This document shows, piece after piece, positions 3,662-54,648 of a stretch of DNA of 64,000 nucleotides (position 1 is the stretch's first letter; every line of letters begins with the position of its first letter). The notes under the pieces were generated by a model, which was not told the DNA's origin, made no database searches, and saw nothing but the letters and a program-made list of their open reading frames with translations. The stretch spans positions 1 to 64,000 of the forward strand of contig CABMCB010000004.1 of the NCBI GenBank assembly GCA_902384455.1. The letters are read 5' to 3'. A program made the translations under genes and the position numbers. Source of the DNA: an uncultured archaeon (lineage in GTDB: Archaea > Altiarchaeota > Altiarchaeia > IMC4 > SCGC-AAA252-I15).

Positions 3662-3670
3662 AACTTACAT

Positions 3671-3743: not shown

Positions 3744-3749
3744 CCATAC

Positions 3750-3821: not shown

Positions 3822-3829
3822 CCAATTTT

Positions 3830-3914: not shown

Positions 3915-3924
3915 CCAATTTAGA

Positions 3925-4009
3925 GGAGAGTTGGCAGAGCGGTAATGCACCTGCTTGGAAAGCAGGAGTCAGGGTAAAACCTGCGGGGGTTCAAATCCCT
4001 CACTCTCCG
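3925..4009 (+). tRNA. tRNA-Ser(GGA), class II, CCA encoded
   Basis: Acceptor GGAGAGT/ACTCTCC, anticodon stem CCTGC/GCAGG, loop TTGGAAA, long variable arm. Confidence 0.85.
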
Positions 4010-4099
4010 CCATAAGCATTGCTGAATCCGTAGGGAAAGCTTTACTCCCTCCTGGATGACGACGGTCAACCAGGAATCAGTAGCCACGCCTGAGCGCGG

Positions 4100-4178
4100 G
4101 GCGAAGTTGGAGCGAGAGGCATGGGTGAGTCGGGGAGATAACAAAGCCTCGATGCGAAGGTTCGATTCCTTTACCTCA
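4100..4178 (+). other. tRNA-like fragment (T-arm GAAGG-TTCGATT-CCTTT with no matching 5' acceptor)
   Basis: Canonical T-arm at 4156-4175, but no acceptor or anticodon arm could be folded. Possible tRNA remnant. Confidence 0.3.
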
Positions 4179-4209
4179 AAAGAAAAGCCCTGCGGTGTCA
4201 GAAGTGCTT

Positions 4210-4280
4210 GCGGGTGTAGCTCAACGGTAGAGCTCCAGTCTTCCAAACTGGCCACGGGGGTTCGATTCCCCCCACCCGCT
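4210..4280 (+). tRNA. tRNA-Gly(TCC), CCA encoded
   Basis: Acceptor GCGGGTG/CACCCGC, anticodon stem CCAGT/ACTGG, loop CTTCCAA. Confidence 0.85.
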
Positions 4281-4286
4281 CCATAC

Positions 4287-4382
4287 GCGACTGATGGTGT
4301 ATATCGGTATCCAGCCCGAGCAAAGCCGTCAGAAGGACGGAAGGACTAGGGTGCGAGTCCCTAGCAGTCGCAATCTACTGAT
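4287..4382 (+). tRNA. aberrant tRNA-like element (96 nt; 7-bp acceptor GCGACTG/CAGTCGC, 6-bp T-stem, no CCA, no clean anticodon arm)
   Basis: T-arm CTAGGG-TGCGAGT-CCCTAG and an internal hairpin CCGTC-AGAAG-GACGG. Possibly a pseudo-tRNA or an unusual tRNA such as a Sec-like 13-bp coaxial stack. Confidence 0.3.
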
Positions 4383-4496
4383 TCCAGACCCAGGAAAGAG
4401 GACCAGGGAAACTGGTTAAGGGCTGAACCTCTACCATCCCGTCGGAATCGGGGCATGAGGGTAGAGGGGAGCGATAAACAATAACCTCCTCAGTGA

Positions 4497-4567
4497 CCGA
4501 GCAAGGTGTTACGGTAGCATGCGTGGTTTGGGACCATGCGGCCCAGGTTCGACTCCTGGTGCTCGGA
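4497..4567 (+). tRNA. tRNA-Pro(TGG), CCA encoded
   Basis: Acceptor CCGAGCA/TGCTCGG, anticodon loop TTTGGGA, T-arm CCAGG-TTCGACT-CCTGG. Confidence 0.85.
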
Positions 4568-4577
4568 CCATTTTTAC

Positions 4578-4659
4578 GGGCGAGTGGCGAAATTGGTATA
4601 CGCACCGCACTCAGAATGCGGCGGGTAACACCGTGTGGGTTCGAATCCCTCCTCGCCCA
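4578..4659 (+). tRNA. tRNA-Leu(CAG), class II, CCA encoded
   Basis: Acceptor GGGCGAG/CTCGCCC, anticodon stem CCGCA/TGCGG, loop CTCAGAA, long variable arm. Confidence 0.8.
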
Positions 4660-4667
4660 CCATTTGA

Positions 4668-4738
4668 GGGCTTGAAGCATTAAGGTGATGCAAGCGGCTT
4701 TTAACCGCTAGAAGACGGGTCAGTACCGTCCGGGCCCA
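4668..4738 (+). tRNA. tRNA-Lys(TTT), CCA encoded; non-canonical T-loop GTCAGTA
   Basis: Acceptor GGGCTTG/CGGGCCC (two G-U pairs), anticodon stem AGCGG/CCGCT, loop CTTTTAA. Confidence 0.65.
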
Positions 4739-4752
4739 CCATTAGGAGCTGA

Positions 4753-5265
4753 ATGAAAGTCCTGTTCCTCGACATAGACGGGGTTGTGGTCCACGCGAAA
4801 TCAGGCAAGGACGTTCATCACCTCGCAATCACCTTGTGGGACCCAAAGTGCAACGAACGGGTCAAGAGGATTTGTCAGAAAACAGGGGCTAAAATCGTTT
4901 TACATTCGGTCTGGTCGTACAGGCCAATTGAGGAAATCAAGACCCTCTTCAGGGAGTATGGTTTCCCAGACGACATACTACACCCAGACTTAACGGCCAG
5001 GAAGCCGGGCGAAAGCCAGCGACAAGAAGGGGCAATCGAGATTTTCAAGGAAAAAAGTGACTATGTCAAGGGTTGGCTTAGCCGCCATCCTGAGGCACAA
5101 CAGGTAGTGTTAATTGACGATGAAACCGAAAACTGGCCATGTCCTTGGGTCAAGATACACCATGGATGGTACAGAGGTGGGATTCAAGAAGAACATGTAG
5201 CACGTGCGGTGGATATTCTCGGTTTAGCTGGGCCTGTGGCGGAATTGGCAGACGCGCAGCCTTGA
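4753..5265 (+). CDS. HAD-superfamily phosphatase-like protein (Pnk phosphatase-domain-like)
   Basis: N-terminal FLDIDGVVV (DxDG motif I), KIVLHSVWS, VVLIDDETENW. The last 36 nt overlap tRNA-Leu(GAG). Confidence 0.55.
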   Translation: MKVLFLDIDGVVVHAKSGKDVHHLAITLWDPKCNERVKRICQKTGAKIVLHSVWSYRPIEEIKTLFREYGFPDDILHPDLTARKPGESQRQEGAIEIFKEKSDYVKGWLSRHPEAQQVVLIDDETENWPCPWVKIHHGWYRGGIQEEHVARAVDILGLAGPVAELADAQP

Positions 5266-5313
5266 GGTGGCTGTGTCCGCAAGGACGTGGAGGTTCAACC
5301 CCTCTCGGGCCCA
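5230..5313 (+). tRNA. tRNA-Leu(GAG), class II, CCA encoded
   Basis: Acceptor GGGCCTG/CGGGCCC, anticodon stem CAGCC/GGCTG, loop TTGAGGT, Leu-type D-arm TGGCGGAATTGGCAGACGCGC. Confidence 0.8.
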
Positions 5314-5327
5314 CCATTATTTTTAGG

Positions 5328-5356
5328 TTGACATCCTTACTCCCTCCTGATACAAT
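5328..5356 (+). promoter_or_regulatory. sigma70-type promoter TTGACA-N17-TACAAT
   Basis: Preceded by TTTTTAGG. Drives paralog 1. Confidence 0.65.
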
Positions 5357-5476
5357 GTGTTCATGGGCAATTCAACGATGACAATATCCTTTACCAGAAC
5401 CAACGGTTCTCTTAATACGGGATATTGGACTCAGCATGACCCAGACTTAAATCCTACGAAAGAGAGCCAACCAGCT

Positions 5477-6064
5477 ATGACATCAGCCCCCGCTTCGTCG
5501 ACCACACCCGCTGCGAAGAAGACCCTCAAGCAGCAGTTGGAGGAAGCCGCTTACAAGGCGGACTGCCTCAAGCTCAGGACCGTCCTACTCGACCTCGTCA
5601 TGAAGAACACCCCCGGCCTGAACGGAAAAGCTGTCAAGCAGAAGGACCCAAAGGTGGCTGCCATCGAGGAAGTCATCAAGAACGGTCGCTGGGGTGGGTC
5701 TTCCAGCATGCAGAACGACGTCAAGAACCTCTGCGAGGCCCTTTTGGGCATCCCCCTCGACCTGACCAAGCCATCCTACATGCCGCAGCCGTTCATGTTG
5801 GCGGTCCCTCTCGACAACATCAACAGCCACGATTACACCGTAGGCAACGTGAGCATGTTCTTCTCAAGCGGTGGGTCGCATGCCATCGAAGTCGTAAAGG
5901 GGGTGGCGCGGACCGGAAACAGTCATGACGCCTCCGAGCTGGGAAACCCTAAGCACTACCGTTTCCCTTCCAAGGCCGAGGCCGAGGAGTTCGTCACCAA
6001 GGTCCTCTCAACCCCCAGCAACATCGCGGAAGTCAAGAAGATGGCTGGCAGGCATTTGCCCTGA
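5477..6064 (+). CDS. paralog 1 of tandem 4-member family (unknown function; C-terminal SKAEAEEFVTKV motif)
   Basis: Start chosen by homology with paralog 2 (MTSAPASS...KKTLKQQLEEA). Conserved ATPGL, PKDPKV, QPFML.VP, SHDY.VG, AVEV, R.GN motifs. Confidence 0.6.
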   Translation: MTSAPASSTTPAAKKTLKQQLEEAAYKADCLKLRTVLLDLVMKNTPGLNGKAVKQKDPKVAAIEEVIKNGRWGGSSSMQNDVKNLCEALLGIPLDLTKPSYMPQPFMLAVPLDNINSHDYTVGNVSMFFSSGGSHAIEVVKGVARTGNSHDASELGNPKHYRFPSKAEAEEFVTKVLSTPSNIAEVKKMAGRHLP

Positions 6065-6071
6065 GCCTTGT

Positions 6072-6104
6072 AGAGCGGGGGAGAAATCCCCCGCTCTTTT
6101 CTGT
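6072..6104 (+). terminator. rho-independent terminator
   Basis: AGAGCGGGGG-agaaat-CCCCCGCTCT followed by TTTTCTGTT. Confidence 0.7.
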
Positions 6105-6132
6105 TGACACACAACCCGTCTTGTGGTACAAT
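6104..6132 (+). promoter_or_regulatory. sigma70-type promoter TTGACA-N17-TACAAT
   Basis: Drives paralog 2; RBS AGGGAGG before ATG 6166. Confidence 0.65.
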
Positions 6133-6165
6133 GCTTTTAGTGAAATCAACCAGGGAGGACTTTGG

Positions 6166-6735
6166 ATGACGACAGCGACCAAGAAAACCGCCAAGCAGCT
6201 CTTGGAGGAGGCGGAAGCCCTCAAGATGCAGAAGGAATTGTCCGATTTCAGGGCGCTTCTCCTGTCGAAGGTGCTCAAGGCCACCCCTGGTTTGGACCCC
6301 AAGGCTCCCGTAGCCCCTCCTAAGGACCCCAAGGTCATCGAGTTGGAGAGAATCTTCAACACGGCCTCGTGGGGTAGCAGCAACACCAAGCAGTCCGTCC
6401 AGCAAATCGTCGAGGTCTTGGTGGGAACCAAGCTCAACACGAAGGACACGAAGTCGAAGCAGTTTATGCTGACCATCCCGGTGATTCCGTGCGCTGGCCA
6501 TGACTATACTCCCGGCAACGTGTGTATGTTCCTGTTCAATGGGCACGACCAAGCCGTCGAAGTCAAGAACAAGACCATCCGCATCGGGAACAGCATGCCC
6601 ACCAACCACCTGAACGACCCCAAGGTTTTCAGGTATCCCTCCAAGGCCGAGGCCGAGGAGTTCGTCACCAAGGTCGCGGCTTCCAAGAAGAATATCGAGG
6701 ACTTGAAAGGCTACCTTGGGTCGGGTGTCCTCTGA
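6166..6735 (+). CDS. paralog 2 of tandem family
   Basis: MTTATKKTAKQLLEEA N-terminus; shares the family motifs and C-terminal SKAEAEEFVTKV. Confidence 0.65.
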   Translation: MTTATKKTAKQLLEEAEALKMQKELSDFRALLLSKVLKATPGLDPKAPVAPPKDPKVIELERIFNTASWGSSNTKQSVQQIVEVLVGTKLNTKDTKSKQFMLTIPVIPCAGHDYTPGNVCMFLFNGHDQAVEVKNKTIRIGNSMPTNHLNDPKVFRYPSKAEAEEFVTKVAASKKNIEDLKGYLGSGVL

Positions 6736-6743
6736 AAAAACGG

Positions 6744-6772
6744 TTGACATCACAGTGCAGTTGATGTAAGAT
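6744..6772 (+). promoter_or_regulatory. sigma70-type promoter TTGACA-N17-TAAGAT
   Basis: Drives paralog 3; RBS CAGGAGG before ATG 6810. Confidence 0.6.
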
Positions 6773-6809
6773 GTACACACGTCGGAAAACTACCCAGGAG
6801 GTTTATCGC

Positions 6810-7406
6810 ATGGCTGACACCAAGACGAAAGCACCGAAGGAATCCTTCGAGGACACGGTCCTGAAGGAGGTCAGCCCCGCCGTCCGAGCCGTCTTGCTCG
6901 AACGTGTGATGTTGGCCACCCCGGGATTGGACCCCAACGGGTTCACGCTGCCGGTCGACGCTCCCAAGGACCCCAAGGTGTTGGCCATCGAGAAGGCCAT
7001 CCGCGACAACCAGTTCAACCACAGCTCGGACAACGACGTTCTGGCAACCATCTTGTCGACTGTCCTGGACATGAAGCTGGAGCCCTATCCAAAGTCCAAG
7101 TCGTCCTTCACCCAACCTTTCATGCTGGTCGTGCCTCTGAACAACACCAACAGCCACGACTACGCCGTGGGCGGGGTCTGCATGCTCCGCTCCAAGGGCT
7201 GCAAAGACGCCGTGGAAGTTGTGAGAGGCAAGGTCCGTGTGGGCAACGACCTTCCGACGAGCAAACTGGGCGACGGCGTGGAACTTCGGTTCGCGTCCAA
7301 GGCCGAGGCCGAGGAATTCGTGACCAAGGTCGTCTCCTCCCTGGAGAACATCCAGAAGGTTCGGGGCTGGGTTCCCGAACTGGACGCCTACCTGGACAAG
7401 ATGTAA
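6810..7406 (+). CDS. paralog 3 of tandem family
   Basis: MADTKTKAPKE N-terminus; ATPGLDPN, PKDPKV, QPFMLVVP, SHDYAVGGV, SKAEAEEFVTKV. Confidence 0.65.
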   Translation: MADTKTKAPKESFEDTVLKEVSPAVRAVLLERVMLATPGLDPNGFTLPVDAPKDPKVLAIEKAIRDNQFNHSSDNDVLATILSTVLDMKLEPYPKSKSSFTQPFMLVVPLNNTNSHDYAVGGVCMLRSKGCKDAVEVVRGKVRVGNDLPTSKLGDGVELRFASKAEAEEFVTKVVSSLENIQKVRGWVPELDAYLDKM

Positions 7407-7421
7407 TCGCCTCCGGGTGCA

Positions 7422-7462
7422 GAGGGCGCGGGGCCACAAGCCTCGCGCCCTTTCTGTTTTTA
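7422..7462 (+). terminator. rho-independent terminator
   Basis: GC-rich stem GGGCGCGGGGCC-acaa-GCCTCGCGCCC followed by TTTCTGTTTTT. Confidence 0.65.
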
Positions 7463-7465
7463 GGG

Positions 7466-7494
7466 TTGACAATGAACAAAAACTGTGATAGAAT
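7466..7494 (+). promoter_or_regulatory. sigma70-type promoter TTGACA-N17-TAGAAT
   Basis: Preceded by TTTTAGGG. Drives paralog 4. Confidence 0.65.
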
Positions 7495-7537
7495 GCTTTC
7501 ACGTTGTTAAAAAATCTAAAACCGGAGGTAGTACAGA

Positions 7538-8128
7538 ATGAGCTCGTCGAAGAAGTCGTCGAAGAAGGTGTCGAAGAAGAGCGGCCTGTCCAAGGCTGGG
7601 AAGGCGCTGTTGGAGCTGGCCTTGAAGGCCACCCCGACCCCGACCCTCCCCGCCAAGAAGACCTCGCCCGTGCCCGTGCCTGTGCCCATCAACCCGCAGG
7701 TGAAGGCCGTCGAGGACGTCCTGGCCAAGAGCCCGTGGGGCCCCGGCGACACTCGCACCAAGCTGTTGGCGGACGTGGCCGCTGCCATCCTGGGCAAGCC
7801 GGTGACCGTCCCCTACGCCCCCTCCACCTGCTCCTCGTCCTGTTCCACAAAGCGCGGGATGGTGGTGGTGGTGACGATGGTGGACGTCCCCGGCTACACC
7901 AAGGGCCAGCCCGTCATGTTCAAGTCGACTGGCGGCTCCCACGGCTTGACCGTGAAGGACGGCAAGGTCGTGCGGATGGACTACTCCCTGCCGGTGGGCA
8001 AGCTGGGCGACCCGAGCGTCCTCCGCTACGCCACCAAGAGCGAAATCGAGGGCCTCGTCAAGCGCTTGACGGCCACCCCCTCGCTCGTGCAGGACACGCA
8101 GTCCTGGATGGAGCTGGTCCTGGCCTAA
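7538..8128 (+). CDS. paralog 4 of tandem family (most divergent; Lys/Ser-rich N-terminus)
   Basis: Retains ATPTP, QPVMF, GGSHG, VLRYATKSEIEGLVKRL, which correspond to the family motifs. Confidence 0.55.
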   Translation: MSSSKKSSKKVSKKSGLSKAGKALLELALKATPTPTLPAKKTSPVPVPVPINPQVKAVEDVLAKSPWGPGDTRTKLLADVAAAILGKPVTVPYAPSTCSSSCSTKRGMVVVVTMVDVPGYTKGQPVMFKSTGGSHGLTVKDGKVVRMDYSLPVGKLGDPSVLRYATKSEIEGLVKRLTATPSLVQDTQSWMELVLA

Positions 8129-8146
8129 GCCGGTCCCTGCTGTACC

Positions 8147-8182
8147 GGGCGGGGGACCTAACCAGTCCCCCGCTTTTTTTTG
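8147..8182 (+). terminator. rho-independent terminator
   Basis: GCGGGGGAC-ctaacca-GTCCCCCGC followed by TTTTTTTT. Confidence 0.75.
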
Positions 8183-8198
8183 TTGGTATACTTACGGC

Positions 8199-8282
8199 GG
8201 GCTTGTGGTGAAATTGGCAGACACGCCTGCCTCAAGAGCAGGTGGCCGCAAGGTCGTGAGGGTTCGAGTCCCTCCTTGCCCA
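8199..8282 (+). tRNA. tRNA-Leu(CAA), class II, CCA encoded; two U-U mismatches in acceptor stem
   Basis: Anticodon stem CCTGC/GCAGG, loop CTCAAGA; Leu-type D-arm; T-arm GAGGG-TTCGAGT-CCCTC. Acceptor GGGCTTG/CTTGCCC. Confidence 0.7.
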
Positions 8283-8292
8283 CCAAATAATC

Positions 8293-8378
8293 GGGCTTGT
8301 GGCGAAACTGGCAGACGCGCCCTACTTAAGATGGGGTGCCCCGAGAGGGGCGTGTGGGTTCAAATCCCACCTTGCCCA
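8293..8378 (+). tRNA. tRNA-Leu(TAA), class II, CCA encoded; same mismatched acceptor as Leu(CAA)
   Basis: Anticodon loop CTTAAGA; variable-arm hairpin; T-arm GTGGG-TTCAAAT-CCCAC. Confidence 0.7.
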
Positions 8379-8383
8379 CCAAT

Positions 8384-8455
8384 ACCCTCCTCGTTCAACG
8401 GACAGGACACCTCGCTACGGACGAGGAGACTGGGGTTCGATTCCCTAGGAGGGTA
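8384..8455 (+). tRNA. tRNA-Arg(ACG), CCA encoded
   Basis: Acceptor ACCCTCC/GGAGGGT, anticodon stem CCTCG/CGAGG, loop CTACGGA. Confidence 0.8.
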
Positions 8456-8461
8456 CCATAT

Positions 8462-8534
8462 GTCCCAGTAGCTCAGCCGGAAGAGCAACCGCCTTCTAAG
8501 CGGTCGGTCGCAGGTTCGAGTCCTGCCTGGGATG
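8462..8534 (+). tRNA. tRNA-Arg(TCT), CCA encoded
   Basis: Anticodon stem ACCGC/GCGGT, loop CTTCTAA; T-arm GCAGG-TTCGAGT-CCTGC; G1-U72. Confidence 0.8.
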
Positions 8535-8542
8535 CCATTTAT

Positions 8543-8614
8543 GCCCCGGTAGCTCAGCGGAGGAGCAGCGGTTTCCGAAGCCGAAGGACAGGGGTTCAAA
8601 TCCCTTCCGGGGTA
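8543..8614 (+). tRNA. tRNA-Arg(CCG) (anticodon assignment tentative), CCA encoded
   Basis: D-arm GCTC-AGCGGAG-GAGC, anticodon loop TTCCGAA with a 4-bp stem, T-arm AGGGG-TTCAAAT-CCCTT. Confidence 0.6.
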
Positions 8615-8620
8615 CCATAC

Positions 8621-8693
8621 GCACTCGTAATTCAGTGGCCAGAATGCCGGTCCTACACACCGGACGTCGTAGGTTCGAATCCTACCGAGTGCA
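8621..8693 (+). tRNA. tRNA-Val(TAC), CCA encoded; C at position 33
   Basis: Acceptor GCACTCG/CGAGTGC, anticodon stem CCGGT/ACCGG, loop CCTACAC, T-arm GTAGG-TTCGAAT-CCTAC. Confidence 0.7.
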
Positions 8694-8703
8694 CCATTTT
8701 TAT

Positions 8704-8775
8704 GGCCTTGTAGCTTAACTGGTAAGAGCGCCCGCCTGAAGAGCGGGATATCCGGTTCGACACCCGGCGAGGCCA
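8704..8775 (+). tRNA. tRNA-Phe(GAA), CCA encoded
   Basis: Anticodon stem CCCGC/GCGGG, loop CTGAAGA; T-loop TTCGACA. Confidence 0.8.
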
Positions 8776-8786
8776 CCATTTTTATC

Positions 8787-8814
8787 TTGACATCCTCCCT
8801 GACCCTGGTATAAT
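8787..8814 (+). promoter_or_regulatory. sigma70-type promoter TTGACA-N16-TATAAT
   Basis: Immediately downstream of tRNA-Phe; drives gene 8842. Confidence 0.65.
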
Positions 8815-8841
8815 GGGGTCATCTTGAAAGGGAGGTTGACC

Positions 8842-9165
8842 ATGAACGCAGTTCTGAACAGCTCAAACGTCCAGTGCCCCAAGCCCGAGGTCGGGATGGG
8901 TGCCACCAAGCTGTACTTCACCGACCGCGCTGCCTACACCATCGTGCGCGTCTCCCCTTCCGGCAAGACCTTCTGGATGAAGCGTGACAAGGCCACCCGC
9001 ACCGACACCAACGGCATGTCCGAGTCCCAGACCTACTCCTACGAATCCTTGCCCGACATCATGCCGGAGGAAGCGGTCCGCCTGTGCCAGGATGGCCAGT
9101 GGCGCTCCGTGGGGATGAAGGTCTTAGTGAGTGCCCGCAGGGAGTACCACGACTACAGCTTTTAA
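8842..9165 (+). CDS. hypothetical protein
   Basis: RBS GGAGG 7 nt before ATG 8842; ORF frame 8824..9165. Confidence 0.5.
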   Translation: MNAVLNSSNVQCPKPEVGMGATKLYFTDRAAYTIVRVSPSGKTFWMKRDKATRTDTNGMSESQTYSYESLPDIMPEEAVRLCQDGQWRSVGMKVLVSARREYHDYSF

Positions 9166-9167
9166 GG

Positions 9168-9196
9168 TTGACATCAACCAACTCGTCTTGTAAAAT
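9168..9196 (+). promoter_or_regulatory. sigma70-type promoter TTGACA-N17-TAAAAT
   Basis: Preceded by TTTTAAGG. Confidence 0.65.
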
Positions 9197-9224
9197 GTTC
9201 CCACCTCAAGCATAGGAGACGTCC

Positions 9225-9743
9225 ATGGGCCGCGAAGTGCGAATGGTTCCCCCCGGTTGGCAGCACCCTCAGGAGGCTGATGGCAGATACAAGCCTCTCC
9301 TCGACGGTAGCTTCGAAAAGGCCCTGGCCGAATGGACCGAGGGCAAGAAGAAGTGGGAAGAGGGTTTTCGGGAGAACTGGGGCGCGAAAGAAGGCGAACC
9401 CAAGTGGAAGCCCAAGGAAGCAGATGAGACGTGTTCCTGGGTCGAATGGAATGGTTCCAAGCCCCAGAAACGGGATTACATGCCAACCTTCCCAGAAGGC
9501 ACCGCCACTCACCTCATGATGTACGAGACATGCACGGAAGGTACGCCCATCAGCCCCGCTTTCGCCACGCCCGAAGAACTGGCCCACTGGTTGGCTGATA
9601 ACGGGGCCTCGGCCTTCGGAGACATGACGGCCACCTACGAACAGTGGCTGGCGACCTGCAAGTCCGGCTGGGCTCCCAGCGCCGTCTTCACATCCCAGAC
9701 CGGCCTCACGAGCGGGGTCGCGGCCACCAAAGAGCGCGGTTGA
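9225..9743 (+). CDS. hypothetical protein
   Basis: RBS AGGAGACG; 172 aa, Trp- and Glu-rich. Confidence 0.5.
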   Translation: MGREVRMVPPGWQHPQEADGRYKPLLDGSFEKALAEWTEGKKKWEEGFRENWGAKEGEPKWKPKEADETCSWVEWNGSKPQKRDYMPTFPEGTATHLMMYETCTEGTPISPAFATPEELAHWLADNGASAFGDMTATYEQWLATCKSGWAPSAVFTSQTGLTSGVAATKERG

Positions 9744-9769
9744 CATAAGCCCCCTCACTTTAGTAGAAT
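9740..9769 (+). promoter_or_regulatory. sigma70-type promoter TTGACA-N18-TAGAAT (tRNA-His)
   Basis: Overlaps the stop codon of the previous gene; 14 nt upstream of tRNA-His. Confidence 0.6.
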
Positions 9770-9783
9770 GTGCGTCTTGTGGT

Positions 9784-9857
9784 GTGGGCGTAGCTTAGCT
9801 GGTCTAAAGCACTGGGTCGTGGACCCGGCATCGGGAGTTCGAATCTCCCCGCTCACC
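9784..9857 (+). tRNA. tRNA-His(GTG), CCA encoded; position -1 is T rather than G
   Basis: Acceptor GTGGGCG/CGCTCAC, discriminator C, anticodon loop TCGTGGA, T-arm GGGAG-TTCGAAT-CTCCC. Confidence 0.7.
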
Positions 9858-9888
9858 CCAGAAGGCGTACACCAAAAAGGAAACGACC

Positions 9889-10176
9889 GTGCCTCAAGTA
9901 CATGCCAAAGCCCACCCCCTCGCGGGTAAGACCGTGAAAATCCTCAAGGGGGATTTCAAGGGCGAGGAATATCGCCTGGAAGACTGGTGGGACCGTGTGT
10001 CCGGCGAGTCTTGGATGAACTGCGAAGGTAACCCTGCCTGCATCGAGTACGCCCTGCGCTCCTCTGGGCTCCGCAACAAGGAAGACGCGACCCCCATCGA
10101 CAACAACGTGGTCTACGGGAAAATCGGGGCGTTCGGCAAGCTGATGCACGTCTCGACGCTTGACACGCTGGGCTGA
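9889..10176 (+). CDS. hypothetical protein
   Basis: GTG start with RBS AAAGGAAAC; 95 aa. Confidence 0.45.
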   Translation: MPQVHAKAHPLAGKTVKILKGDFKGEEYRLEDWWDRVSGESWMNCEGNPACIEYALRSSGLRNKEDATPIDNNVVYGKIGAFGKLMHVSTLDTLG

Positions 10177-24225: not shown

Positions 24226-24300
24226 GAGGTAGGTAGCTCAACAGGTAGAGCCGCAGGATGGTATCTGCGAGATTGAGGGTTCGAGTCCTTCACGACCTCG
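24226..24300 (+). tRNA. aberrant tRNA-like element (8-nt anticodon loop GATGGTAT, no CCA, imperfect acceptor)
   Basis: D-arm GCTC-AACAGGTA-GAGC, stem CGCAG/CTGCG, T-arm GAGGG-TTCGAGT-CCTTC. Possible pseudo-tRNA, frameshift-suppressor-like tRNA or att-site remnant. Confidence 0.3.
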
Positions 24301-24326
24301 CCTAAAAAATTCAAGGAGAAGAAAGT

Positions 24327-47521: not shown

Positions 47522-47904
47522 TTGGTACTACCTTTCTTCGCGTTACGGCCCGTCAGGAGCCGCTTAATGTCTTGAAAAAACCACTTAAAACTGAGAAGGG
47601 TCTTACGGAACCACGAGGGCTCTTTCCAGATACGGAACCTATTCTTGTAATCAATAAGCTCCATATCCCTGTGGTTTACAAGGTCCTTGTCGTCAACGTC
47701 GATATAGGCAACCTTGTCCAAACAGATAATCCCGCTCATCTTCTTATCTGGTCCGTCGTACCAGAGCGTAAAGGTACGGTCCCTGACAGAGTTCAGCGCC
47801 AAAGACAGGTTAAGAATCTCAGCTTGGCTCAGAAGTAAATCTTTTTGAGAGCCACTCACCAAGTGTATTCTCACCAACCTGTAGGCGGTTAAGTCTTCTG
47901 GCAT
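47518..47904 (-). CDS. hypothetical protein
   Basis: Overlaps the 3' end of 47819..48409 by 86 nt, so the start is uncertain. Confidence 0.35.
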   Translation of the reverse strand: MPEDLTAYRLVRIHLVSGSQKDLLLSQAEILNLSLALNSVRDRTFTLWYDGPDKKMSGIICLDKVAYIDVDDKDLVNHRDMELIDYKNRFRIWKEPSWFRKTLLSFKWFFQDIKRLLTGRNAKKGSTK

Positions 47905-48409
47905 CTTCCTTACTCCTCCGAATGCTCTTGATATTCAGGTACGGAATATCCTCAAAAGCTTTCAGGTACGGTCGAAGTTTCGACTTCGGCCCCATTGCCT
48001 CGTCCAGCGTGATTTTGGACGACTGCAACCACCTTTGCGCGGTGGATGGCTGGATTCCAAACTCGGTGGCGATGTCCTTCAAGGCTTTAAGCTCCACGTA
48101 GTGTAGGAGCAAGCACTTGAACTTGTCTGGCGTGAGAACCTTTACAGCGAACCTTAAAAACTCAACGTAGTTCATCTTGTAATGGTAGGTGTAGACTGCC
48201 CGAATCTTACGGGAAATCACCTTCCGACGCCTTACGACTTCGCACGGAGGGAGCTCAAGGAGTTCTGCGATTTCCTTAGTACGACGGCGCTTTAGCGCCA
48301 GGGAAATAAAGTCACTCTCCAACGGGGTCAGATAGCTACTGGAAATAGCTAAGAGAACTTCGTGGGAGACTTCCCTCACATCGTCGGAAATCTCAAGCAG
48401 GGTGCTCAT
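47819..48409 (-). CDS. sigma-factor region-4-like HTH protein (transcription regulator)
   Basis: LKDIATEFGIQPSTAQRWL and TKEIAELLELPPCEVVRRR resemble sigma70 region 4; late motif upstream. Confidence 0.5.
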   Translation of the reverse strand: MSTLLEISDDVREVSHEVLLAISSSYLTPLESDFISLALKRRRTKEIAELLELPPCEVVRRRKVISRKIRAVYTYHYKMNYVEFLRFAVKVLTPDKFKCLLLHYVELKALKDIATEFGIQPSTAQRWLQSSKITLDEAMGPKSKLRPYLKAFEDIPYLNIKSIRRSKEDARRLNRLQVGENTLGEWLSKRFTSEPS

Positions 48410-48477: not shown

Positions 48478-48493
48478 CCCCAAAATTTAGGGG
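48478..48493 (-). promoter_or_regulatory. late-gene motif CCCCTAAATTTTGGGG (copy 6)
   Basis: Perfect match to copy 3; upstream of gene 47819..48409. Confidence 0.5.
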
Positions 48494-49002
48494 TTATCAC
48501 GAGAACTGGTCGAAAGGTGCGGAATAGCAACCCAGCGCTTCACCACCCGGTTGGGAAGCTGTACTGCAATCTGGGCCATAAGAGCCTTCTTTCGAAGCAC
48601 CTTTCCGGAAAAGCCTCCAAGGATTCCTTCGGTCACACGAACCGCCTGTCCGACTGAAATCCTGCTCTTCTTGAGAAGAACCTTCTTCCTGAAAGCTTTA
48701 ACTTGAGAGTCAGGAATAGAAGGAGGAAGGCCTTTCTGGTTTACGTTGAAGAATTCTCCAACCCGCCTTGACTTAATCAACTTGACAATTTCGACCAGCT
48801 TCTTGTCATTCACTCTGATAAGTACATACCCTTCAAGGAGTGAATCTTCCTTTTCGTCGATGTCCAAGTTGTCTTTCTTGAACTCGAAGATAAGGACTTC
48901 TTTTAAATCGCCCGACTTCGGGTTGTATCCGCCCTTCTTAAGTTCCGCCATAAAGGCGTCTTTGGAAGAGACAGAGCTTTGAATTGCGTACCACTTGTAC
49001 AT
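48487..49002 (-). CDS. NusG-like transcription factor (NGN plus KOW)
   Basis: N-terminal KWYAIQSSVS (compare NusG RWYVVQ) and KOW motif GQAVRVTEGILGGFSGKV. Confidence 0.6.
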   Translation of the reverse strand: MYKWYAIQSSVSSKDAFMAELKKGGYNPKSGDLKEVLIFEFKKDNLDIDEKEDSLLEGYVLIRVNDKKLVEIVKLIKSRRVGEFFNVNQKGLPPSIPDSQVKAFRKKVLLKKSRISVGQAVRVTEGILGGFSGKVLRKKALMAQIAVQLPNRVVKRWVAIPHLSTSSRDNP

Positions 49003-49017: not shown

Positions 49018-49629
49018 TTAAATCAGCTTCTTAAACTCCGTACCCTTTGCAGTTTTCACAAGAGAATATCCGTTGGTAGCTACTTCCAAGAAGGCGTGTT
49101 GGTGGGTTACAAGGAGGAATCTCATGTTCAACTGTTCGGACAAAGACTTTAACAACATTGCCACCTTAGGCACGTACTCAGAAGACACGTGCGAAAAGGA
49201 CTCGTCCAAGAACATGATGGGCTCACGTTGAGGCCTGATAGAAGCCAGCATCAGAGCCTTCAAAACGAACGCCACAACGTCAACCACCCCTCCACCACAA
49301 CTTGTCATGATGTCCAGCTCAAGACCGTCGTTCTGCAGGAGCTTGAACTTGGTGAGTACCTTCTTCTCGGCAGACACCTCGATGACAAACTTGTAGTCGA
49401 ACCCAAACACTTCCTTCACAGCCATCGTAACGACCCTTTCGAACATTTCGATGGTTGCTTTCTTCTTCTGTTCCCCAATCCGTTTCAGTGTCTCCCCGGC
49501 CTGCTCCAAGACCTTCATCTGTTCCTGCAAACCCTGCAACTCAGTTCGAGACTTATCCAACAAAGCCTTGTTGGCCTTGACGTCGTAAGCCATAGACTGG
49601 ATTTTAGCTTCAAGCTCAGCGAGGGGCAT
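49018..49629 (-). CDS. Rad50/SbcC-like ATPase, C-terminal lobe (split gene product)
   Basis: Signature-like TSCGGG, Walker B IMFLDES, H-loop LLVTHQ. Confidence 0.65.
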   Translation of the reverse strand: MPLAELEAKIQSMAYDVKANKALLDKSRTELQGLQEQMKVLEQAGETLKRIGEQKKKATIEMFERVVTMAVKEVFGFDYKFVIEVSAEKKVLTKFKLLQNDGLELDIMTSCGGGVVDVVAFVLKALMLASIRPQREPIMFLDESFSHVSSEYVPKVAMLLKSLSEQLNMRFLLVTHQHAFLEVATNGYSLVKTAKGTEFKKLI

Positions 49630-49961
49630 TAAAGTTCGTCCACCATACCTTTAGGGGGTTCTTGAGCAACTTCAATGGGAGGTAGAGCCGAGGCTGCTTT
49701 CCCATTCAGTTTGTCCTCGACCAACTTAGCAGCAATCTCTGCAGCGGCGATGGATTTGTCCAAACGCTCACTTGCAGACTTAATGTTCAGTTCCATCTTT
49801 TCGATAGAGGCTTTAAGGTCCCCTACGTTGGCCAGTCCTAAAGACTTGAGCTCGGCCAGGAACCGCTCTCTCTTCGTCTCGTTGTCTGCCTTTTGTGACT
49901 TAAAGAATTCCATCTTACCCTTCAGAGTGACAAGTTTGCTGGCAATCTCTTGATTATCCAT
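49629..49961 (-). CDS. coiled-coil protein (possible Rad50 return coiled-coil segment)
   Basis: 110 aa heptad-rich; TAATG overlap with the downstream ATPase lobe. Confidence 0.45.
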   Translation of the reverse strand: MDNQEIASKLVTLKGKMEFFKSQKADNETKRERFLAELKSLGLANVGDLKASIEKMELNIKSASERLDKSIAAAEIAAKLVEDKLNGKAASALPPIEVAQEPPKGMVDEL

Positions 49962-50766
49962 GGCTTGAAGAACTCCCGAACGAAGTAACTTTTGGACCTA
50001 CACGGAGCATTGCATCCGAGCACATGTTCCGAAAAATACACTCCCTGCAGACCTTCTCTTTTGGGTTGGCGTAGAAGATGCCTTTATTGATGTGGTCGTT
50101 AGTATCCTTAAGGATTTCCAAAGCCGCCGAACGTTGCATTTCAGACAACTGTACCGGAACCTTAGCTCCAGACCGAAGCATCAAAAAGAACGCCTCTCCG
50201 ACCTTCTTACCCATCTTTTTTTCAAGGGCCATGACGTAGAGAAGCAACTGCATTCCCTTGATGTATGTCATGTCCTTGGAGGTCTTGAAGTCCCCAACCC
50301 AAAGAACCTCACCCGTATCCTTCACCCAGTCCACAGACCCTTGAATCCACAGACCCTTCTCCAACTCAAACGGGTTAAAGTATGTGCCTACCGAATACTC
50401 ATTGTATACGTCTCCCAAGTCCATGCCCAGCTTCTTAACCGTAGAGATAGAAAGCTTAAGAAGCTCTCTCGTCTTATCTCGGATAGTCTCTTTTGTTTCC
50501 CCAGTCATGAAGAGGATGACACCACGGGAGCGCTGTTCGGAGAACACTCTATCGAACACAGAATCAAAGATGGAAAGAATGTATTCCTCGTTCAGGGGTT
50601 TGGAATGCAGGAATCCAGCCTTCAAGCAGTCGTGAACCACCGCGCCTTCCAAAAACCAGCGGTTGTTCTGGGGAATAGTCGACTTACGCTTTTCGATGTA
50701 CTTGTATCGAAAAAACTTGGGGCAGGACCTGTAAGCGCTTAGAGAAGTGTAGCTTAGAGCAATCAC
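49954..50766 (-). CDS. PD-(D/E)xK nuclease, Cas4/RecB-like
   Basis: N-terminal SYTSLSAYRSCPKFFRYKYI and C-terminal Cys cluster CRECIFRNMC. Confidence 0.6.
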   Translation of the reverse strand: MIALSYTSLSAYRSCPKFFRYKYIEKRKSTIPQNNRWFLEGAVVHDCLKAGFLHSKPLNEEYILSIFDSVFDRVFSEQRSRGVILFMTGETKETIRDKTRELLKLSISTVKKLGMDLGDVYNEYSVGTYFNPFELEKGLWIQGSVDWVKDTGEVLWVGDFKTSKDMTYIKGMQLLLYVMALEKKMGKKVGEAFFLMLRSGAKVPVQLSEMQRSAALEILKDTNDHINKGIFYANPKEKVCRECIFRNMCSDAMLRVGPKVTSFGSSSSHG

Positions 50767-51752
50767 ACGCTTTCCTCAGCCTTGTCGAGAAGGTTAAAAA
50801 TCATGGTTCTTACCGGCTCTCGAATGGTCTTTAATTCTCTGACCAAGTGCCGGATGCTTTCAGGTCCACTCAGCTCAACGTTACCTGATTCAAACTTGAT
50901 GAGTTCCCCGAGACGATTGATTTCAGCCTCTGCTTGCTTCGTCTCCCGAACCTTGTCAAGGTCGAAAATCTTGTTGGCGGGTAGAGCACTCTTCAGCTCT
51001 CTGTAGTATAAAGCCCTTTTCTCCGTATCTAAAAGGGTAATTGTAACTTTTCTGTTCAGGTTTGACTCGACCAAGGACCCCCTGGTAAGGCTTCCACGGT
51101 TAATAATCGTTGTTTTTCCTACCTTTACCTCGCCCAGGTCATCGTGGACATGTCCATTGAAATGGAAGTCAACAGGGCTTCCAACAAGCTGGGAGTACAA
51201 GGTATAGGGCTCGTAAACAGGTCGCTTGACGTACAGGTCCCCATGGCTCATGTGAATGTGAACGCCGTTAAACGGGCGTCCTTCGATAAGATTGTCATGA
51301 TGCTTTGTCATGTCCGGCATGTAGTTCTTGATGTCGGCTTCGTAGTTGTCTGTCTTCGGAGCCCCCGTAATCCACACTTTATTCCAGCTATTGAACATAC
51401 TTCCTGCTGAAAGAAGCGTTAGACACCCCGAGCTCACCAATGTTCCCAATGGTTGCCGGTCAACACTGCTCTCATTGCGGTCCGGCACGTCGTGGTCCCC
51501 GATGATTCCGTATACTGGGCAGGGCAAAGACTTGAAGTACCCAATGAGCTTGTTGACAAGAGAATATGGATTACGCATCCAGTTCTTGAGGTGGAAGAAG
51601 TCACCCGAACACAGGATGAGCTCAGCACCCTCAGCCTTGGCAATATCCCGAATCTCGTCAAGCTTACGGAAGCACGTCTCTTCGTAGTTGTCGATTCTGG
51701 CGATTGGGCCTACAGCAGAGAGGTGAGGGTCAGTGAAGTGCAGGATTTTCAT
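50763..51752 (-). CDS. Mre11/SbcD nuclease (T4 gp47-like)
   Basis: ILHFTDPHL, GDFFH, GDHD, GHVH phosphoesterase motifs. Confidence 0.75.
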   Translation of the reverse strand: MKILHFTDPHLSAVGPIARIDNYEETCFRKLDEIRDIAKAEGAELILCSGDFFHLKNWMRNPYSLVNKLIGYFKSLPCPVYGIIGDHDVPDRNESSVDRQPLGTLVSSGCLTLLSAGSMFNSWNKVWITGAPKTDNYEADIKNYMPDMTKHHDNLIEGRPFNGVHIHMSHGDLYVKRPVYEPYTLYSQLVGSPVDFHFNGHVHDDLGEVKVGKTTIINRGSLTRGSLVESNLNRKVTITLLDTEKRALYYRELKSALPANKIFDLDKVRETKQAEAEINRLGELIKFESGNVELSGPESIRHLVRELKTIREPVRTMIFNLLDKAEESV

Positions 51753-52213
51753 GAACTTCCCTTTAAGTAGTTTAAAGCCTTAAAAAGTAATTGATTACCC
51801 CGAGTATCTGATTTAAAAAAACCCAATCCGCTGTTGCACTGTCTACAAAGAAGCCCCCTAACCTTTCCTGTAGTGTGGTCATGGTCTATACTAAGAATAC
51901 CAGACTTACAGACCTCTCCGCATATAGCACAGACCCCTCTCTGAATACTCATCATGTTCTCAAAAGCTTCTTTAGTAAGACCATAAGATTCGACTAACTT
52001 ACTACGATGATATTTATACCTAACATCCTTATGTACAGTAGACTTAGGATTACTTAACCTTTTTACTCGGGAACACGTCATACAAAACTTACATACAGAT
52101 TTCCCAATCTCGTCTCCAGGAAATCTTTTCTCAAAATGAGTCAATGGTAGGAACCCAGATTTTGATTTTCTGGGGTTAACACATTTGGGATTACTACAAG
52201 TTTTAGCAATCAT
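51749..52213 (-). CDS. HNH homing endonuclease
   Basis: IDHDHTTGKVRGLLCRQCNSGLG HNH motif; AT-rich relative to its neighbours. Confidence 0.7.
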   Translation of the reverse strand: MIAKTCSNPKCVNPRKSKSGFLPLTHFEKRFPGDEIGKSVCKFCMTCSRVKRLSNPKSTVHKDVRYKYHRSKLVESYGLTKEAFENMMSIQRGVCAICGEVCKSGILSIDHDHTTGKVRGLLCRQCNSGLGFFKSDTRGNQLLFKALNYLKGSS

Positions 52214-52388
52214 CTAAACTCCTAACAACTTTAAACTTATTCTTTTTAGGGCGTCCTCCCAAAAGCCCATTATCTCTTGAGGCTCTGGACTTTCTTTCGG
52301 TTTTGGTAAGGGCTGCTTTCTGCATCCTCTTCCGAACTGTAGGGTCAACAGGACCCTCGTAGGTGTATTTGATGGATTTCCTGGACAT
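52203..52388 (-). CDS. small basic protein
   Basis: ATG overlaps the Rad50-N stop (TAATG); 61 aa. Confidence 0.35.
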   Translation of the reverse strand: MSRKSIKYTYEGPVDPTVRKRMQKAALTKTERKSRASRDNGLLGGRPKKNKFKVVRSLDDC

Positions 52389-53455
52389 TAGAGGGGCCTC
52401 TGGCAGGTAGGGCAAATCTTAACCTGCTCCTCAAGGGATTTAATCTGTCCTTGGTAATCGAACAGACGGGATTCCAGCTCGGCTTGCCTACTATCAATGT
52501 CAACAAACCCAGCAAAGAGAACCTTGCTCTTACTCAAAAGAGTACTTTCGGTCTTCAAAAGCTCAAAAGACTCTACAAGAGAACCCAAGGAGGTTTCCAA
52601 GACTGCGATATCCTTGGGCAGTTCGTCAGACAGTGAATAGGGGTGAACCCCCTGCATTCTATCCAACAAAACTTCCAAGGAGCTTTTCTTTGTCTGGAGG
52701 CCCTGACCATCTTTCCAAAGAGATAAAACTTCCTGAAGCTTAAACTCAAAAGGAGCCAGGTCAGCTTCCCGAGCCTGGAGGCTTTCCATCCCGTCGAGCA
52801 ATGTCTTGTAGTAAATGACCCTCTTCTTTTCATCCTCGATGGAGGACTGAAGAGCTTTGATTTCCCTGACAGTCTCTAAAAGAGCATCTACTTCCTTGGA
52901 AAGAGTTTCGTACTTCAAAAGGTCAGAGACGTTACCCTGAAGTACTTCAGCCTTGGTCTTAGACTTCTGGTACTCCGAGTTCCCTTCACGAATAGCTGCA
53001 TAGACAATGTTAATCCCAGAAAGGCTACTGACAGCCTTCGTGATTACAGTGGTTGAATCCGACAGGAGGAAGGGAGTGTCGAATTGTCTGCAGAAGTTGA
53101 GGTCTAAAGACTGGTCTTTGTCAAGAACCAGCTCAGGAGTTCTGAGGTTTCGAGAAACCTCATCAGGGACATCACGTCCAACCTTGCAATAGGTGCTACT
53201 TCCGGAGAAGTAATTGTTTACACCCTTGCCTTTAGTGATGGCCACCCGTAGTCCGCTATCCAGGTACTGCGTAACCTCAAGCTTGGACTTACCGTGCTTG
53301 ACAAGCTCTAAGCCCCCCTGGTTTCGATGAAGCAGGTACAGGGCTCGGATGACTGCACTCTTCCCAACGTCAGATTGGCCCACCAACACAGTCAGTGGGC
53401 CAATCTCGACTTCAGCATCGCTAATGGACTGGAAGTTCTTAAGTGTGAGCTTCAA
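52388..53455 (-). CDS. Rad50/SbcC-like ATPase, N-terminal lobe plus coiled coil ending in a CxxC zinc hook
   Basis: Walker A VLVGQSDVGKSAV; long coiled coil; terminal KICPTCQRPL. Confidence 0.65.
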   Translation of the reverse strand: MKLTLKNFQSISDAEVEIGPLTVLVGQSDVGKSAVIRALYLLHRNQGGLELVKHGKSKLEVTQYLDSGLRVAITKGKGVNNYFSGSSTYCKVGRDVPDEVSRNLRTPELVLDKDQSLDLNFCRQFDTPFLLSDSTTVITKAVSSLSGINIVYAAIREGNSEYQKSKTKAEVLQGNVSDLLKYETLSKEVDALLETVREIKALQSSIEDEKKRVIYYKTLLDGMESLQAREADLAPFEFKLQEVLSLWKDGQGLQTKKSSLEVLLDRMQGVHPYSLSDELPKDIAVLETSLGSLVESFELLKTESTLLSKSKVLFAGFVDIDSRQAELESRLFDYQGQIKSLEEQVKICPTCQRPL

Positions 53456-53457
53456 GA

Positions 53458-54648
53458 TTACCCCGTGATTTCGTCCTTGGAAAAGCTCCCTGTCTTAGGA
53501 GCGACCTCCACGACGTCTTCTTCAGAAGCCCCAATCTCAGAGGCCGTCACGTCACGGCTCTCAACAGTTAGGTCGAATTCCGAAGGGTCATACTTCACAG
53601 CCTTCCCGTTCAGCTTCGACAAGAGAACCTGAAGGAGCTTGGGATTGACAGCAAACAGGTTCCAGAAGTTGTTGTAGGAAGACGCCTTGATGGTAGGGTC
53701 GTCCTTCAGGCGGTGCTCACCCTTGGACTCCCGGACAACAACTCCGGAATCAATCCCGCGCTTGATAGCGCTGGTAATGACATCGAAGCCCTTACCATTC
53801 CGAAGGGTCATCGTAGCTTCACCAAAAGGTTCCCCAACACGGTTCTTGATGAACTTCAGGCGCACATTGCGCCCAATCTTCACGTTGACCTTCTTCTTGG
53901 GGTCCTTGTCAGAAGCTACCTGCTTGGTGACGTAGTCCAAGGGCTTCAAGTAAATACGCATGTCGCAGTGGTGCTTGAATGCGTTCCCACCCGGAGTTTC
54001 CTCGGGGTCGCCAAGATTAACGTAAGGGCCAGACTGAGGCTTCGACATGATGTGGTTGATGAAGATGATGGAAGCCCCCGTAGCCCGAAGGTCCGGACCC
54101 TTCACACGAAGGGCCTTGGTAAGAAGCTTGGCCTTGAGCATCATGTCGTTGCCTTCAAGACCCTTCTCGTCCACACTTTCAAGCTCAGCCTTCGTGGTCA
54201 TAACGGCCACGGAGTCCAGGATACACCCACAGAACGCACCCGTAGCCAGGAGCTTCTCCATGAATTCGAAGTTCATCTCGACGGTGTGCTCCTCCAGCTC
54301 AGGGATGTAGATTTGCTCTACAGGAACCCCGAGGGCAATCAGGTAAGTCTTGGAGGTGGATTCCTCATTGTCCATGAGGAGGATTTTCTTTCCCGTGATT
54401 CGAGCAATCTGGGCCAGGATTTGCCACGCCAGGGTGGTCTTACCGCTCGAAGGAGGGCCTGAAATCTCAATGAGCTTACCCATCGGGAAACCCCCGCAGT
54501 TCGAGGCCTGGTTGAATTCATAGAAGTCCGTAGGGTAAATCACGCACTCCGGCATCTGGTCGAATGTACGTACAGCGTTCTTCCCGTGCAGAGCGGTAAG
54601 CTCGTTGATAGCTTCTCTCAGCGCGGCGTTCGTTTCAGTCTTCTTCAT
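53458..54648 (-). CDS. RecA/UvsX-like recombinase
   Basis: GGFPMGKLIEISGPPSSGKTTLA RecA-type P-loop; 396 aa. Confidence 0.75.
   Translation of the reverse strand: MKKTETNAALREAINELTALHGKNAVRTFDQMPECVIYPTDFYEFNQASNCGGFPMGKLIEISGPPSSGKTTLAWQILAQIARITGKKILLMDNEESTSKTYLIALGVPVEQIYIPELEEHTVEMNFEFMEKLLATGAFCGCILDSVAVMTTKAELESVDEKGLEGNDMMLKAKLLTKALRVKGPDLRATGASIIFINHIMSKPQSGPYVNLGDPEETPGGNAFKHHCDMRIYLKPLDYVTKQVASDKDPKKKVNVKIGRNVRLKFIKNRVGEPFGEATMTLRNGKGFDVITSAIKRGIDSGVVVRESKGEHRLKDDPTIKASSYNNFWNLFAVNPKLLQVLLSKLNGKAVKYDPSEFDLTVESRDVTASEIGASEEDVVEVAPKTGSFSKDEITG

Follow-up and report, generated by a model that had tools for sequence, protein, structure and literature searches.

A tailed-phage recombination module probably encodes a Rad50 assembled from separate chains

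A 64,000-nucleotide stretch of contig CABMCB010000004.1 (GenBank assembly GCA_902384455.1; positions 1 to 64,000, referred to here as the window) carries on its minus strand, at 49018-54648, a tight operon in which the open reading frame (ORF) map shows pieces of a Rad50-like ATPase together with recombination and end-processing genes. We conclude that this operon, a recombination and end-processing module from a tailed phage, probably encodes a Rad50 of non-covalently assembled separate chains that works with Mre11. In canonical Rad50 and SbcC, both lobes of the ATP-binding cassette (ABC) head and both strands of the arm lie on one chain. In the phage system, by contrast, the N-terminal chain stops four residues past the hook, lobe II is a separate protein of ~200 residues, a third small helical protein invariably accompanies the two, and genes for Mre11 and another nuclease stand between the pieces. 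The single-polypeptide arm that defines Rad50, SbcC and SMC proteins is absent here. The three pieces are encoded as follows:

52388-53455, minus strand: Rad50 N-terminal piece (N piece), 355 residues, with ABC lobe I, the arm and CPTC
49629-49961, minus strand: small coiled-coil subunit (CC piece), 110 residues, with two predicted helices and a disordered tail
49018-49629, minus strand: Rad50 C-terminal piece (C piece), 203 residues, with a return helix and ABC lobe II

The N piece contains a Walker A motif (GQSDVGKS, residues 26-33, nucleotides 53357-53380) and a Q-loop (RQ, residues 123-124), and G26, G31, K32 and Q124 are nearly invariant across 97 sequences of its family. After the Q-loop region the protein is helical arm only, about 180-195 residues long, and it terminates in ...KICPTCQRPL, with CPTC at nucleotides 52403-52414 and the stop codon four residues later. 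It contains no lobe II motif: signature, Walker B and H-loop are all missing. When a profile of the N family was compared with solved structures, the best match was the archaeal Rad50 3aux (E 4e-15), with SMC6 and RecN next. The NCBIfam archaeal Rad50 model NF003034 placed residues 153-355 of the N piece on profile positions 259-445 of 878, that is, up to the hook. A profile of the last ~80 residues, built from 30 family members, matched best to the P. furiosus Rad50 zinc hook 1L8D (E 9e-6), with the family sequence iCPtCGrpl aligned on KCPVCGREL and CxxC on CPVC. The original prediction, made from the window's sequence, described this gene as a Walker-A lobe and outgoing arm ending at CPTC, and both the motif coordinates and the 1L8D alignment bear it out.

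The C piece begins with a return helix (about residues 3-75) and carries the ABC signature SCGGG (nucleotides 49288-49302), Walker B IMFLDE (49201-49218) and the H-loop LVTHQ (49099-49113); it has no P-loop. These catalytic motifs are invariant in all 15 of the C pieces aligned. The protein matches the C-terminal part of Pfam SMC_N and, over the full length of the family, phrog_15167 (E 3e-24), and its best solved-structure match is T. maritima Rad50 from signature to H-loop (residues 281-350). Motif positions and structural match agree with the earlier description of the gene as a C-terminal lobe with IMFLDE and LVTHQ. Mapped onto Rad50, the N piece extends as far as the zinc hook, and the stretch from signature to H-loop belongs to the C piece. 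The two regions are complementary, as the original prediction required. Neither piece is predicted to be an ATPase by itself, because the N piece has no lobe II motifs and the C piece has no P-loop. Both halves are collinear with one 374-position defence-system ATPase model, PADLOC PDLC04135 (mad3), to which N-piece residues 2-71 align at positions 4-91 and C-piece residues 16-187 at positions 178-334; mad3 is a short unsplit relative of the head. Curated cutoffs are not reached, as expected for half-proteins (28.7 bits against a cutoff of 700 for NCBIfam Rad50 with the N piece, 25.6 against 40 for SMC_N with the C piece), yet no curated model names either piece Rad50.

Family matches of the N piece, to Pfam AAA_15 and AAA_23 and to phrog_16465 (E 5e-23), could be taken to mean that the two proteins are not partners at all, the N piece being an AAA_15/OLD-type ATPase that acts alone or is defence-like and the C piece an unrelated ABC fragment. 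Such a reading can also appeal to the single-sequence search of solved structures, in which an OLD-family ATPase came first (E 0.002), and to the many PADLOC ATPase models that match the first ~45-75 residues of the N piece. We regard it as highly improbable. The AAA, OLD and PADLOC matches cover the P-loop region only, Rad50 becomes the top match with the family profile, and the motifs absent from the N piece are exactly those found in the C piece. The halves also travel together: the nine phage-collection records that carry one half are the nine that carry the other, and every fetched N-piece locus with enough flank also carries a short C piece. A defence-system assignment of the N piece was dropped, the PADLOC matches being limited to the P-loop region.

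The division into half-proteins extends across the family. All 89 N-piece homologues are half-length (267-577 residues); CxxC lies at most 30 residues from the C-terminus in 81 of the 89 and is in alignment register in 86 of 88. A profile search with the C piece across 1.84 billion representatives returned 3,559 clusters at E<=1e-3, of which 1,983 remain at E<=1e-10, and the best 150 matches were all stand-alone proteins of 118-310 residues, matched over almost their whole length. No full-length Rad50 was present among the 89 N-piece homologues or the best 150 C-piece homologues. IMG/VR gave no match when scanned with a single C-piece sequence and four loci when scanned with a C-piece alignment.

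Close relatives preserve the layout of the operon. The C piece has 14 such relatives (62-82% identity, all 198-209 residues), and contigs from nine of them were compared together with one IMG/VR contig. Seven relatives with the whole module (L011, L012/L013, L014, L020, L021, L022 and L024), with N pieces 42-56% identical to that of the window, share the order RecA, N piece (355-356 residues), variable small ORF, Mre11, Cas4-like nuclease, CC piece (95-107 residues), C piece, NusG. Two contigs that end within the module (L019 and L023) contain its CC-C part. None of the compared close-relative contigs has an uninterrupted Rad50 gene, and no single-chain antiparallel arm linking the lobes was found in the more than 20 loci examined. 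Every piece is under purifying selection, with proportions of nonsynonymous differences (pN) of 0.07-0.46 against synonymous proportions (pS) of 0.60-0.98, at which synonymous sites are saturated; for the CC piece, the ratio of nonsynonymous to synonymous rates (dN/dS) is about 0.10 between L021 and L022. Judged from these sequences, the split is a family-wide working design and not damage. The original prediction had left a naturally multi-subunit Rad50 and a fragmented gene side by side; the same three pieces in relatives, their complementary mapping and purifying selection favour the former.

Four genes separate the N piece from the CC piece. Family scans, and a GC content of 0.374 for the HNH gene against 0.47-0.49 in neighbouring genes, confirm the small basic ORF, AT-rich HNH gene, SbcD/Mre11 and Cas4/RecB-like nuclease recognized there before:

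52203-52388, minus strand: small basic ORF, 61 residues, with ATG at 52388 and the motif RDNGLLGGRPKK
51749-52213, minus strand: endonuclease VII/HNH gene, 154 residues (Pfam PF02945, E 3e-19)
50763-51752, minus strand: Mre11/SbcD nuclease, 329 residues (Pfam Metallophos, E 3e-13; phrog_100)
49954-50766, minus strand: Cas4/RecB-like PD-(D/E)xK nuclease, 270 residues (Pfam PDDEXK_1, E 3e-22; Cas_Cas4, E 1e-14)

The AT-rich HNH-family gene among the pieces was once read as a possible mark of a recent disruption, and a Rad50 gene newly broken by this mobile element and by frameshifts, now a pseudogene or decaying copy, would also account for CC and C pieces that lie in different frames with overlapping stop and start. 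The comparisons contradict this reading, which is extremely improbable. The HNH gene lies outside every Rad50 piece, in the junction of the small basic ORF with Mre11. Seven of seven whole-module relatives lack it there, yet their Rad50 is divided into pieces of the same lengths and none has an uninterrupted Rad50 at the locus. Relative to L011, the small basic ORF is common up to ...GGRPKK, after which the window has ~450 extra bases with the HNH gene; the insertion replaced only the last ~75 nucleotides of the small basic ORF, and similarity to L011 resumes at the Mre11 start. Decay is likewise contradicted by the invariant catalytic motifs, by amino-acid change that is low in all pieces while synonymous sites are saturated, and by the lack of any full-length member among the 89 N-piece or best 150 C-piece homologues.

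The HNH gene itself is a free-standing mobile (selfish) endonuclease gene inserted in a gene junction, specific to the window and not the cause of the split. In one relative, L020, an endonuclease VII gene 47% identical to it stands upstream of RecA (72-665), and the endonuclease VII family is represented in 1,750 phage records, where it is often multi-copy and oddly placed. Its Endonuclease_7 domain and its sporadic, position-variable distribution among close relatives are those of a homing-type family, with putative homing activity. The small basic ORF likely starts at the ATG at 52388, overlapping the N-piece stop. Among relatives it has a homologue in L011 only (5654-5884, 53% identity), with which it shares the AT-hook-like motif KYTY-GP-DP...ARDNGLLGGRPKK; it is an operon passenger and not a part of Rad50. 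Module junctions gather different passenger genes in different relatives: an unrelated 128-residue ORF in L021 (2188-2574), a 61-residue ORF in L022 (3715-3900), and in L016 a patatin gene (8193-9074) and an HNH-like Cys-rich ORF (9527-10156).

Distant loci contain the same components in other arrangements. N piece, Mre11, a CC-like ORF and C piece occur together in L007, L016, L017, L025, L026 and L027, in the order N-Mre11-CC-C in L007, L025, L026 and L027. A Sporomusa prophage (L018) and the Bacillus prophage phBC6A51 (L002) have the order N-CC-C-x-Mre11. The C piece of L004 is on the opposite strand, and in L004, L016 and L017 the CC gene stands apart from the C piece with other genes between. 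In Bacillus phage 0305phi8-36 (L001), Mre11 is fused to the N piece and the C piece lies three genes downstream. Related loci have Mre11 as well. Among cultured phages, the halves are ~39 kb apart in Microbacterium phage Magritte (OR553905.1; 284-934 and 93850-94497) and ~108 kb apart in Tunturiibacter phage Tunturi_5 (PP885688.1; 19407-19646 and 127684-128400), where they are annotated 'exonuclease', 'hypothetical protein' or 'ATPase'. Halves that are unlinked yet co-occur are hard to explain except as two subunits of one enzyme.

In the window, TAATG stop/start overlaps at the junctions of the N piece with the small ORF and of the CC piece with the C piece fit co-translation of one operon. 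The overlap by one base of the CC stop and the C start might alternatively serve to restore a single Rad50 chain, by ribosomal frameshifting or bypassing or, at the protein level, by splicing. We give this next to no credence: the N and CC pieces are ~2.4 kb apart with four other proteins encoded between them, the pieces of other lineages lie on opposite strands (L004) or 39-108 kb apart, and the ends of the pieces show nothing that resembles an intein.

The third piece was originally described as a pure coiled coil, and a helix of ~37 residues, a G-L turn and a second helix of ~41 residues are indeed predicted, followed by a disordered tail; a role as the return coil is tentative, since its length does not scale with that of the arm and its sequence shows no detectable relation to Rad50. 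Scans of Pfam, PHROG, PADLOC and NCBIfam gave no family match for the CC piece, and a sequence search with it recovered one relative only. By position, CC orthologues of 95-112 residues are present in all close relatives. Similar small proteins lie near the C piece in L002, L004, L007, L016, L017, L018, L025, L026 and L027; these distant CC-like proteins have 65-95 residues, arranged as a helix of ~40 residues, a G-hydrophobic turn and a helix of ~35-40 residues. From size, position and helix pattern we infer that the close and distant proteins are equivalent.

Piece lengths distinguish the C piece from the CC piece. Across 10 lineages, N-piece length (335-531 residues) is correlated with C-piece length (rho 0.84, p 0.002) and is uncorrelated with CC length (rho about 0). 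This combination suggests that the N-terminal helix of the C piece is an adjustable return strand near the head and that the CC piece is a module of fixed size whose most plausible place is the part of the arm next to the hook. The N-piece arms of L007 (8001-9008) and L004 (8001-9107) contain tandem peptide repeats, such as VEVYRLHILQRMRQ... and LTPLPSRPENPSKLIILSEYCQ, which suggest that arm length evolves by repeat expansion. Within the fast-evolving arm, residues 264-282 of the window's N piece (nucleotides about 52610-52666) form a conserved G-(I/V)-S/H-x-Y-(S/T)-L-(S/T)-x-(D/E)-(F/L/Y) patch.

An artificial N-CC-C fusion was modelled with AlphaFold2 using an unpaired alignment of 88 N-only and 8 C-only rows. 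The mean predicted local distance difference test score (pLDDT) was 80.8, with 90-98 in lobe I and 81-96 in lobe II; the fused chain modelled with no alignment was poor (pLDDT 42.6). In a Foldseek search of the PDB with the fused model, the top matches were Rad50 chains (7zr1_D, E 9e-12). Helices of the N part are predicted at 148-228, 234-265 and 278-344, with a short hairpin at CxxC; in the numbering of the fusion, the CC helices span 359-395 and 401-441, before the disordered tail, and the helix of the C piece covers 468-540. Around the hook and into the first CC helix, a helix-hook-helix is predicted at pLDDT 70-85, across a junction that the fusion imposed. A low-confidence break in the model, about residues 264-277, coincides with the conserved patch (YSLS-D/E-F) of the N arm, which may be an elbow or a docking site.

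Several observations count against the proposed multi-chain assembly. The modelled fusion is artificial, its predicted template modelling score (pTM) is 0.40, the second CC helix has a pLDDT of 61-68 and the alignment of lobe II is shallow (8 sequences); contacts between chains, like zinc binding, are predictions. The clear return-arm helices amount to ~130 residues (37+41 from the CC piece and about 52 from the C piece) against ~180-195 in the outgoing arm, and the shortfall is larger in longer-armed relatives (slope 0.3-0.5). No part of Rad50 is detectably similar to the CC piece, and an hhalign comparison of close with distant CC-like proteins was not significant (probability 17%). The mismatch in arm length would mean either that the N arm is partly unpaired or folded, or that there are contributions from the CC tail and the break region which the model did not predict.

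In a different reading, which we consider unlikely but take seriously, Rad50 consists of two chains, the N and C pieces, and the 110-residue CC protein is an accessory and no part of the arm. It could be a hook cap or latch, or an adaptor or regulator of Mre11-Rad50, with the N arm partly unpaired or folded back. The near-constant CC length (65-110 residues while N pieces range over 335-531 residues, rho about 0) speaks for an accessory, as do the short return helices, the lack of any family or Rad50 match and the separation of the CC gene from the C piece by other genes in L004, L016 and L017. On the other side, a small two-helix protein accompanies the C piece in every locus checked and is under purifying selection, and the helix-hook-helix of the fused model (pLDDT 70-85) continues into the CC piece, though at the junction imposed by the fusion.

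The preferred reading, a Rad50 of separately encoded chains, is directly supported by the homology of the pieces, the family-wide stop just past the hook, conservation, purifying selection and co-occurrence. The P. furiosus Rad50 catalytic domain was crystallised from two co-expressed fragments (PDB 1F2T/1F2U), with the separate lobes forming the ATP-binding head; by analogy with it we propose a two-chain head, and chains A and B of 1F2T/1F2U are among the structure matches in both the N-piece search and the Foldseek search with the fused model. The P. furiosus protein was a laboratory construct with no arm or hook, whereas the phage two-chain state would be natural and would include the full arm. 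The N piece would contribute ABC lobe I (Walker A and Q-loop), the outgoing arm helix and the C-terminal CxxC, and the C piece the return helix and ABC lobe II (signature, Walker B, D-loop and H-loop region). Lobes I and II would associate non-covalently into one nucleotide-binding head, and a single Zn2+ held between the CxxC motifs of two N pieces would link these in the manner of the Rad50 hook. The CC piece, as a third subunit of fixed size, would most likely pack on the hook-proximal N arm, and the C-piece helix would pair with the head-proximal part of that arm. The complex may act with the Mre11 nuclease encoded between the pieces, and the Cas4-like nuclease and RecA may assist in the processing of DNA ends for recombination-dependent replication. 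That the chains assemble, that they bind zinc and where the CC piece sits are all put forward here as predictions.

A further and more doubtful idea is that the break at the zinc hook is itself functional, and not neutral, so that a free-ended hook and a separate CC subunit of fixed size would make an openable gate in the Rad50 arm. If this were true, a gated arm could be assembled, exchanged or released with no unfolding of the head, the Mre11-Rad50 machine would have a different way to admit or hold DNA, and nature would have provided, in the phage enzyme, a test of how far Rad50 function depends on a chain that runs unbroken through the hook.

Genes that flank the pieces place them in a recombination context. 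All five phosphoesterase motifs are complete in the Mre11/SbcD protein (DPH, GDFFH, GDHD, HMSHG and GHVH), and NCBIfam Mre11/SbcD models match it below cutoff. The neighbouring PD-(D/E)xK protein scores above cutoff for PDDEXK_1 and Cas_Cas4 and below it for TIGR00372 (60.5 against 65), and it has four cysteines as for an iron–sulfur cluster (Cys15 and C240-x2-C243-x5-C249). Because there is no CRISPR context, it is a Cas4-like nuclease and not Cas4 proper. The genes that border the module are:

53458-54648, minus strand: RecA/UvsX-like recombinase (Pfam RecA, E 2e-39; phrog_97), directly upstream of the N piece
48487-49002, minus strand: NusG-like gene, directly downstream of the C piece
47819-48409: sigma-70 region 4 protein, identified by family scan

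The position of the RecA/UvsX-like gene next to the module is kept in relatives. The NusG-like gene adjoins the C piece in the window and in the close relatives with recovered flank, in most of which the sigma-70 region 4 protein comes after it; a NusG-like transcription factor is thus fixed beside a repair module. A search of the whole window for further Rad50-like ORFs found one N-type and one C-type and no others. When the locus was compared by megablast with 50,697 phage records, nothing matched, and no sequenced close relative is among them.

The contig is a tailed-phage genome (record proteins VVB50692.1, VVB50687.1 and VVB50686.1). Its genes include a portal, a family A DNA polymerase, the sigma-70 region 4 protein and the NusG-like gene; the 'uncultured archaeon' label of the source record apparently arose as an artefact of binning, and a bacterial host is probable. 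The window also has 22 tRNA genes in three tight arrays on the plus strand (2065-9860), which cover most amino acids and are unusual for a ~69-kb phage contig, and at 24226-24302 ARAGORN reports an unusual tRNA whose anticodon has 2 bases.

The phage module shares much with canonical Rad50/SbcC and Mre11/SbcD systems such as archaeal Rad50, E. coli SbcCD and T4 gp46/gp47: the ABC head motifs, a long helical arm, a partner Mre11 gene and a recombination-module context beside RecA/UvsX. Its CxxC hook, with predicted zinc binding, aligns to Cys444 and Cys447 of P. furiosus Rad50. RloC and other Rad50-like zinc-hook ABC ATPases likewise have a coiled-coil insert tipped by a CxxC hook. Compared by description, RloC differs from the phage split Rad50 in that it is a single chain fused to an anticodon nuclease, with no Mre11 partner.

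Rearranged architectures in this enzyme family include the Mre11-Rad50 fusions of Mimivirus (R555) and Bacillus phage 0305phi8-36 (gp8), the latter of which was noted to lack one P-loop NTPase segment (Yoshida et al. 2011, PMC3175470). These fusions belong to the same family as the phage module and represent the same kind of rearranged gene architecture. In our comparison, 0305phi8-36 gp8 (L001 2675-4984) combines in one chain an Mre11 domain and an N piece from the window's N family, and gp5 (L001 6001-6711), annotated 'ATPase', is the matching C piece, which explains the ATPase segment missing from the fusion in PMC3175470. PHROG lists the halves as separate, generic families (phrog_16465 'exonuclease' and phrog_15167 'ATPase') with no link in their annotation. 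Full-text literature searches for a split, fragmented or two-part Rad50 or SbcC found no description, and an earlier mention is possible; the split Rad50 is apparently a very large family and an undescribed variant of a well-known enzyme.

Recognition of the halves would correct the annotation of thousands of phage entries now called 'exonuclease', 'ATPase', 'RecN' or 'chromosome segregation protein', which would be halves of one enzyme. The role of the long arms and zinc hook of Rad50 in DNA-end processing is still debated, and experiments on the arm and hook usually use engineered truncations or split constructs. The compact phage pieces, of 355, 110 and 203 residues, are possible material for structural and biochemical work. 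If the separate chains assemble as proposed, an arm that naturally ends at the hook would indicate that covalent continuity is dispensable in vivo.

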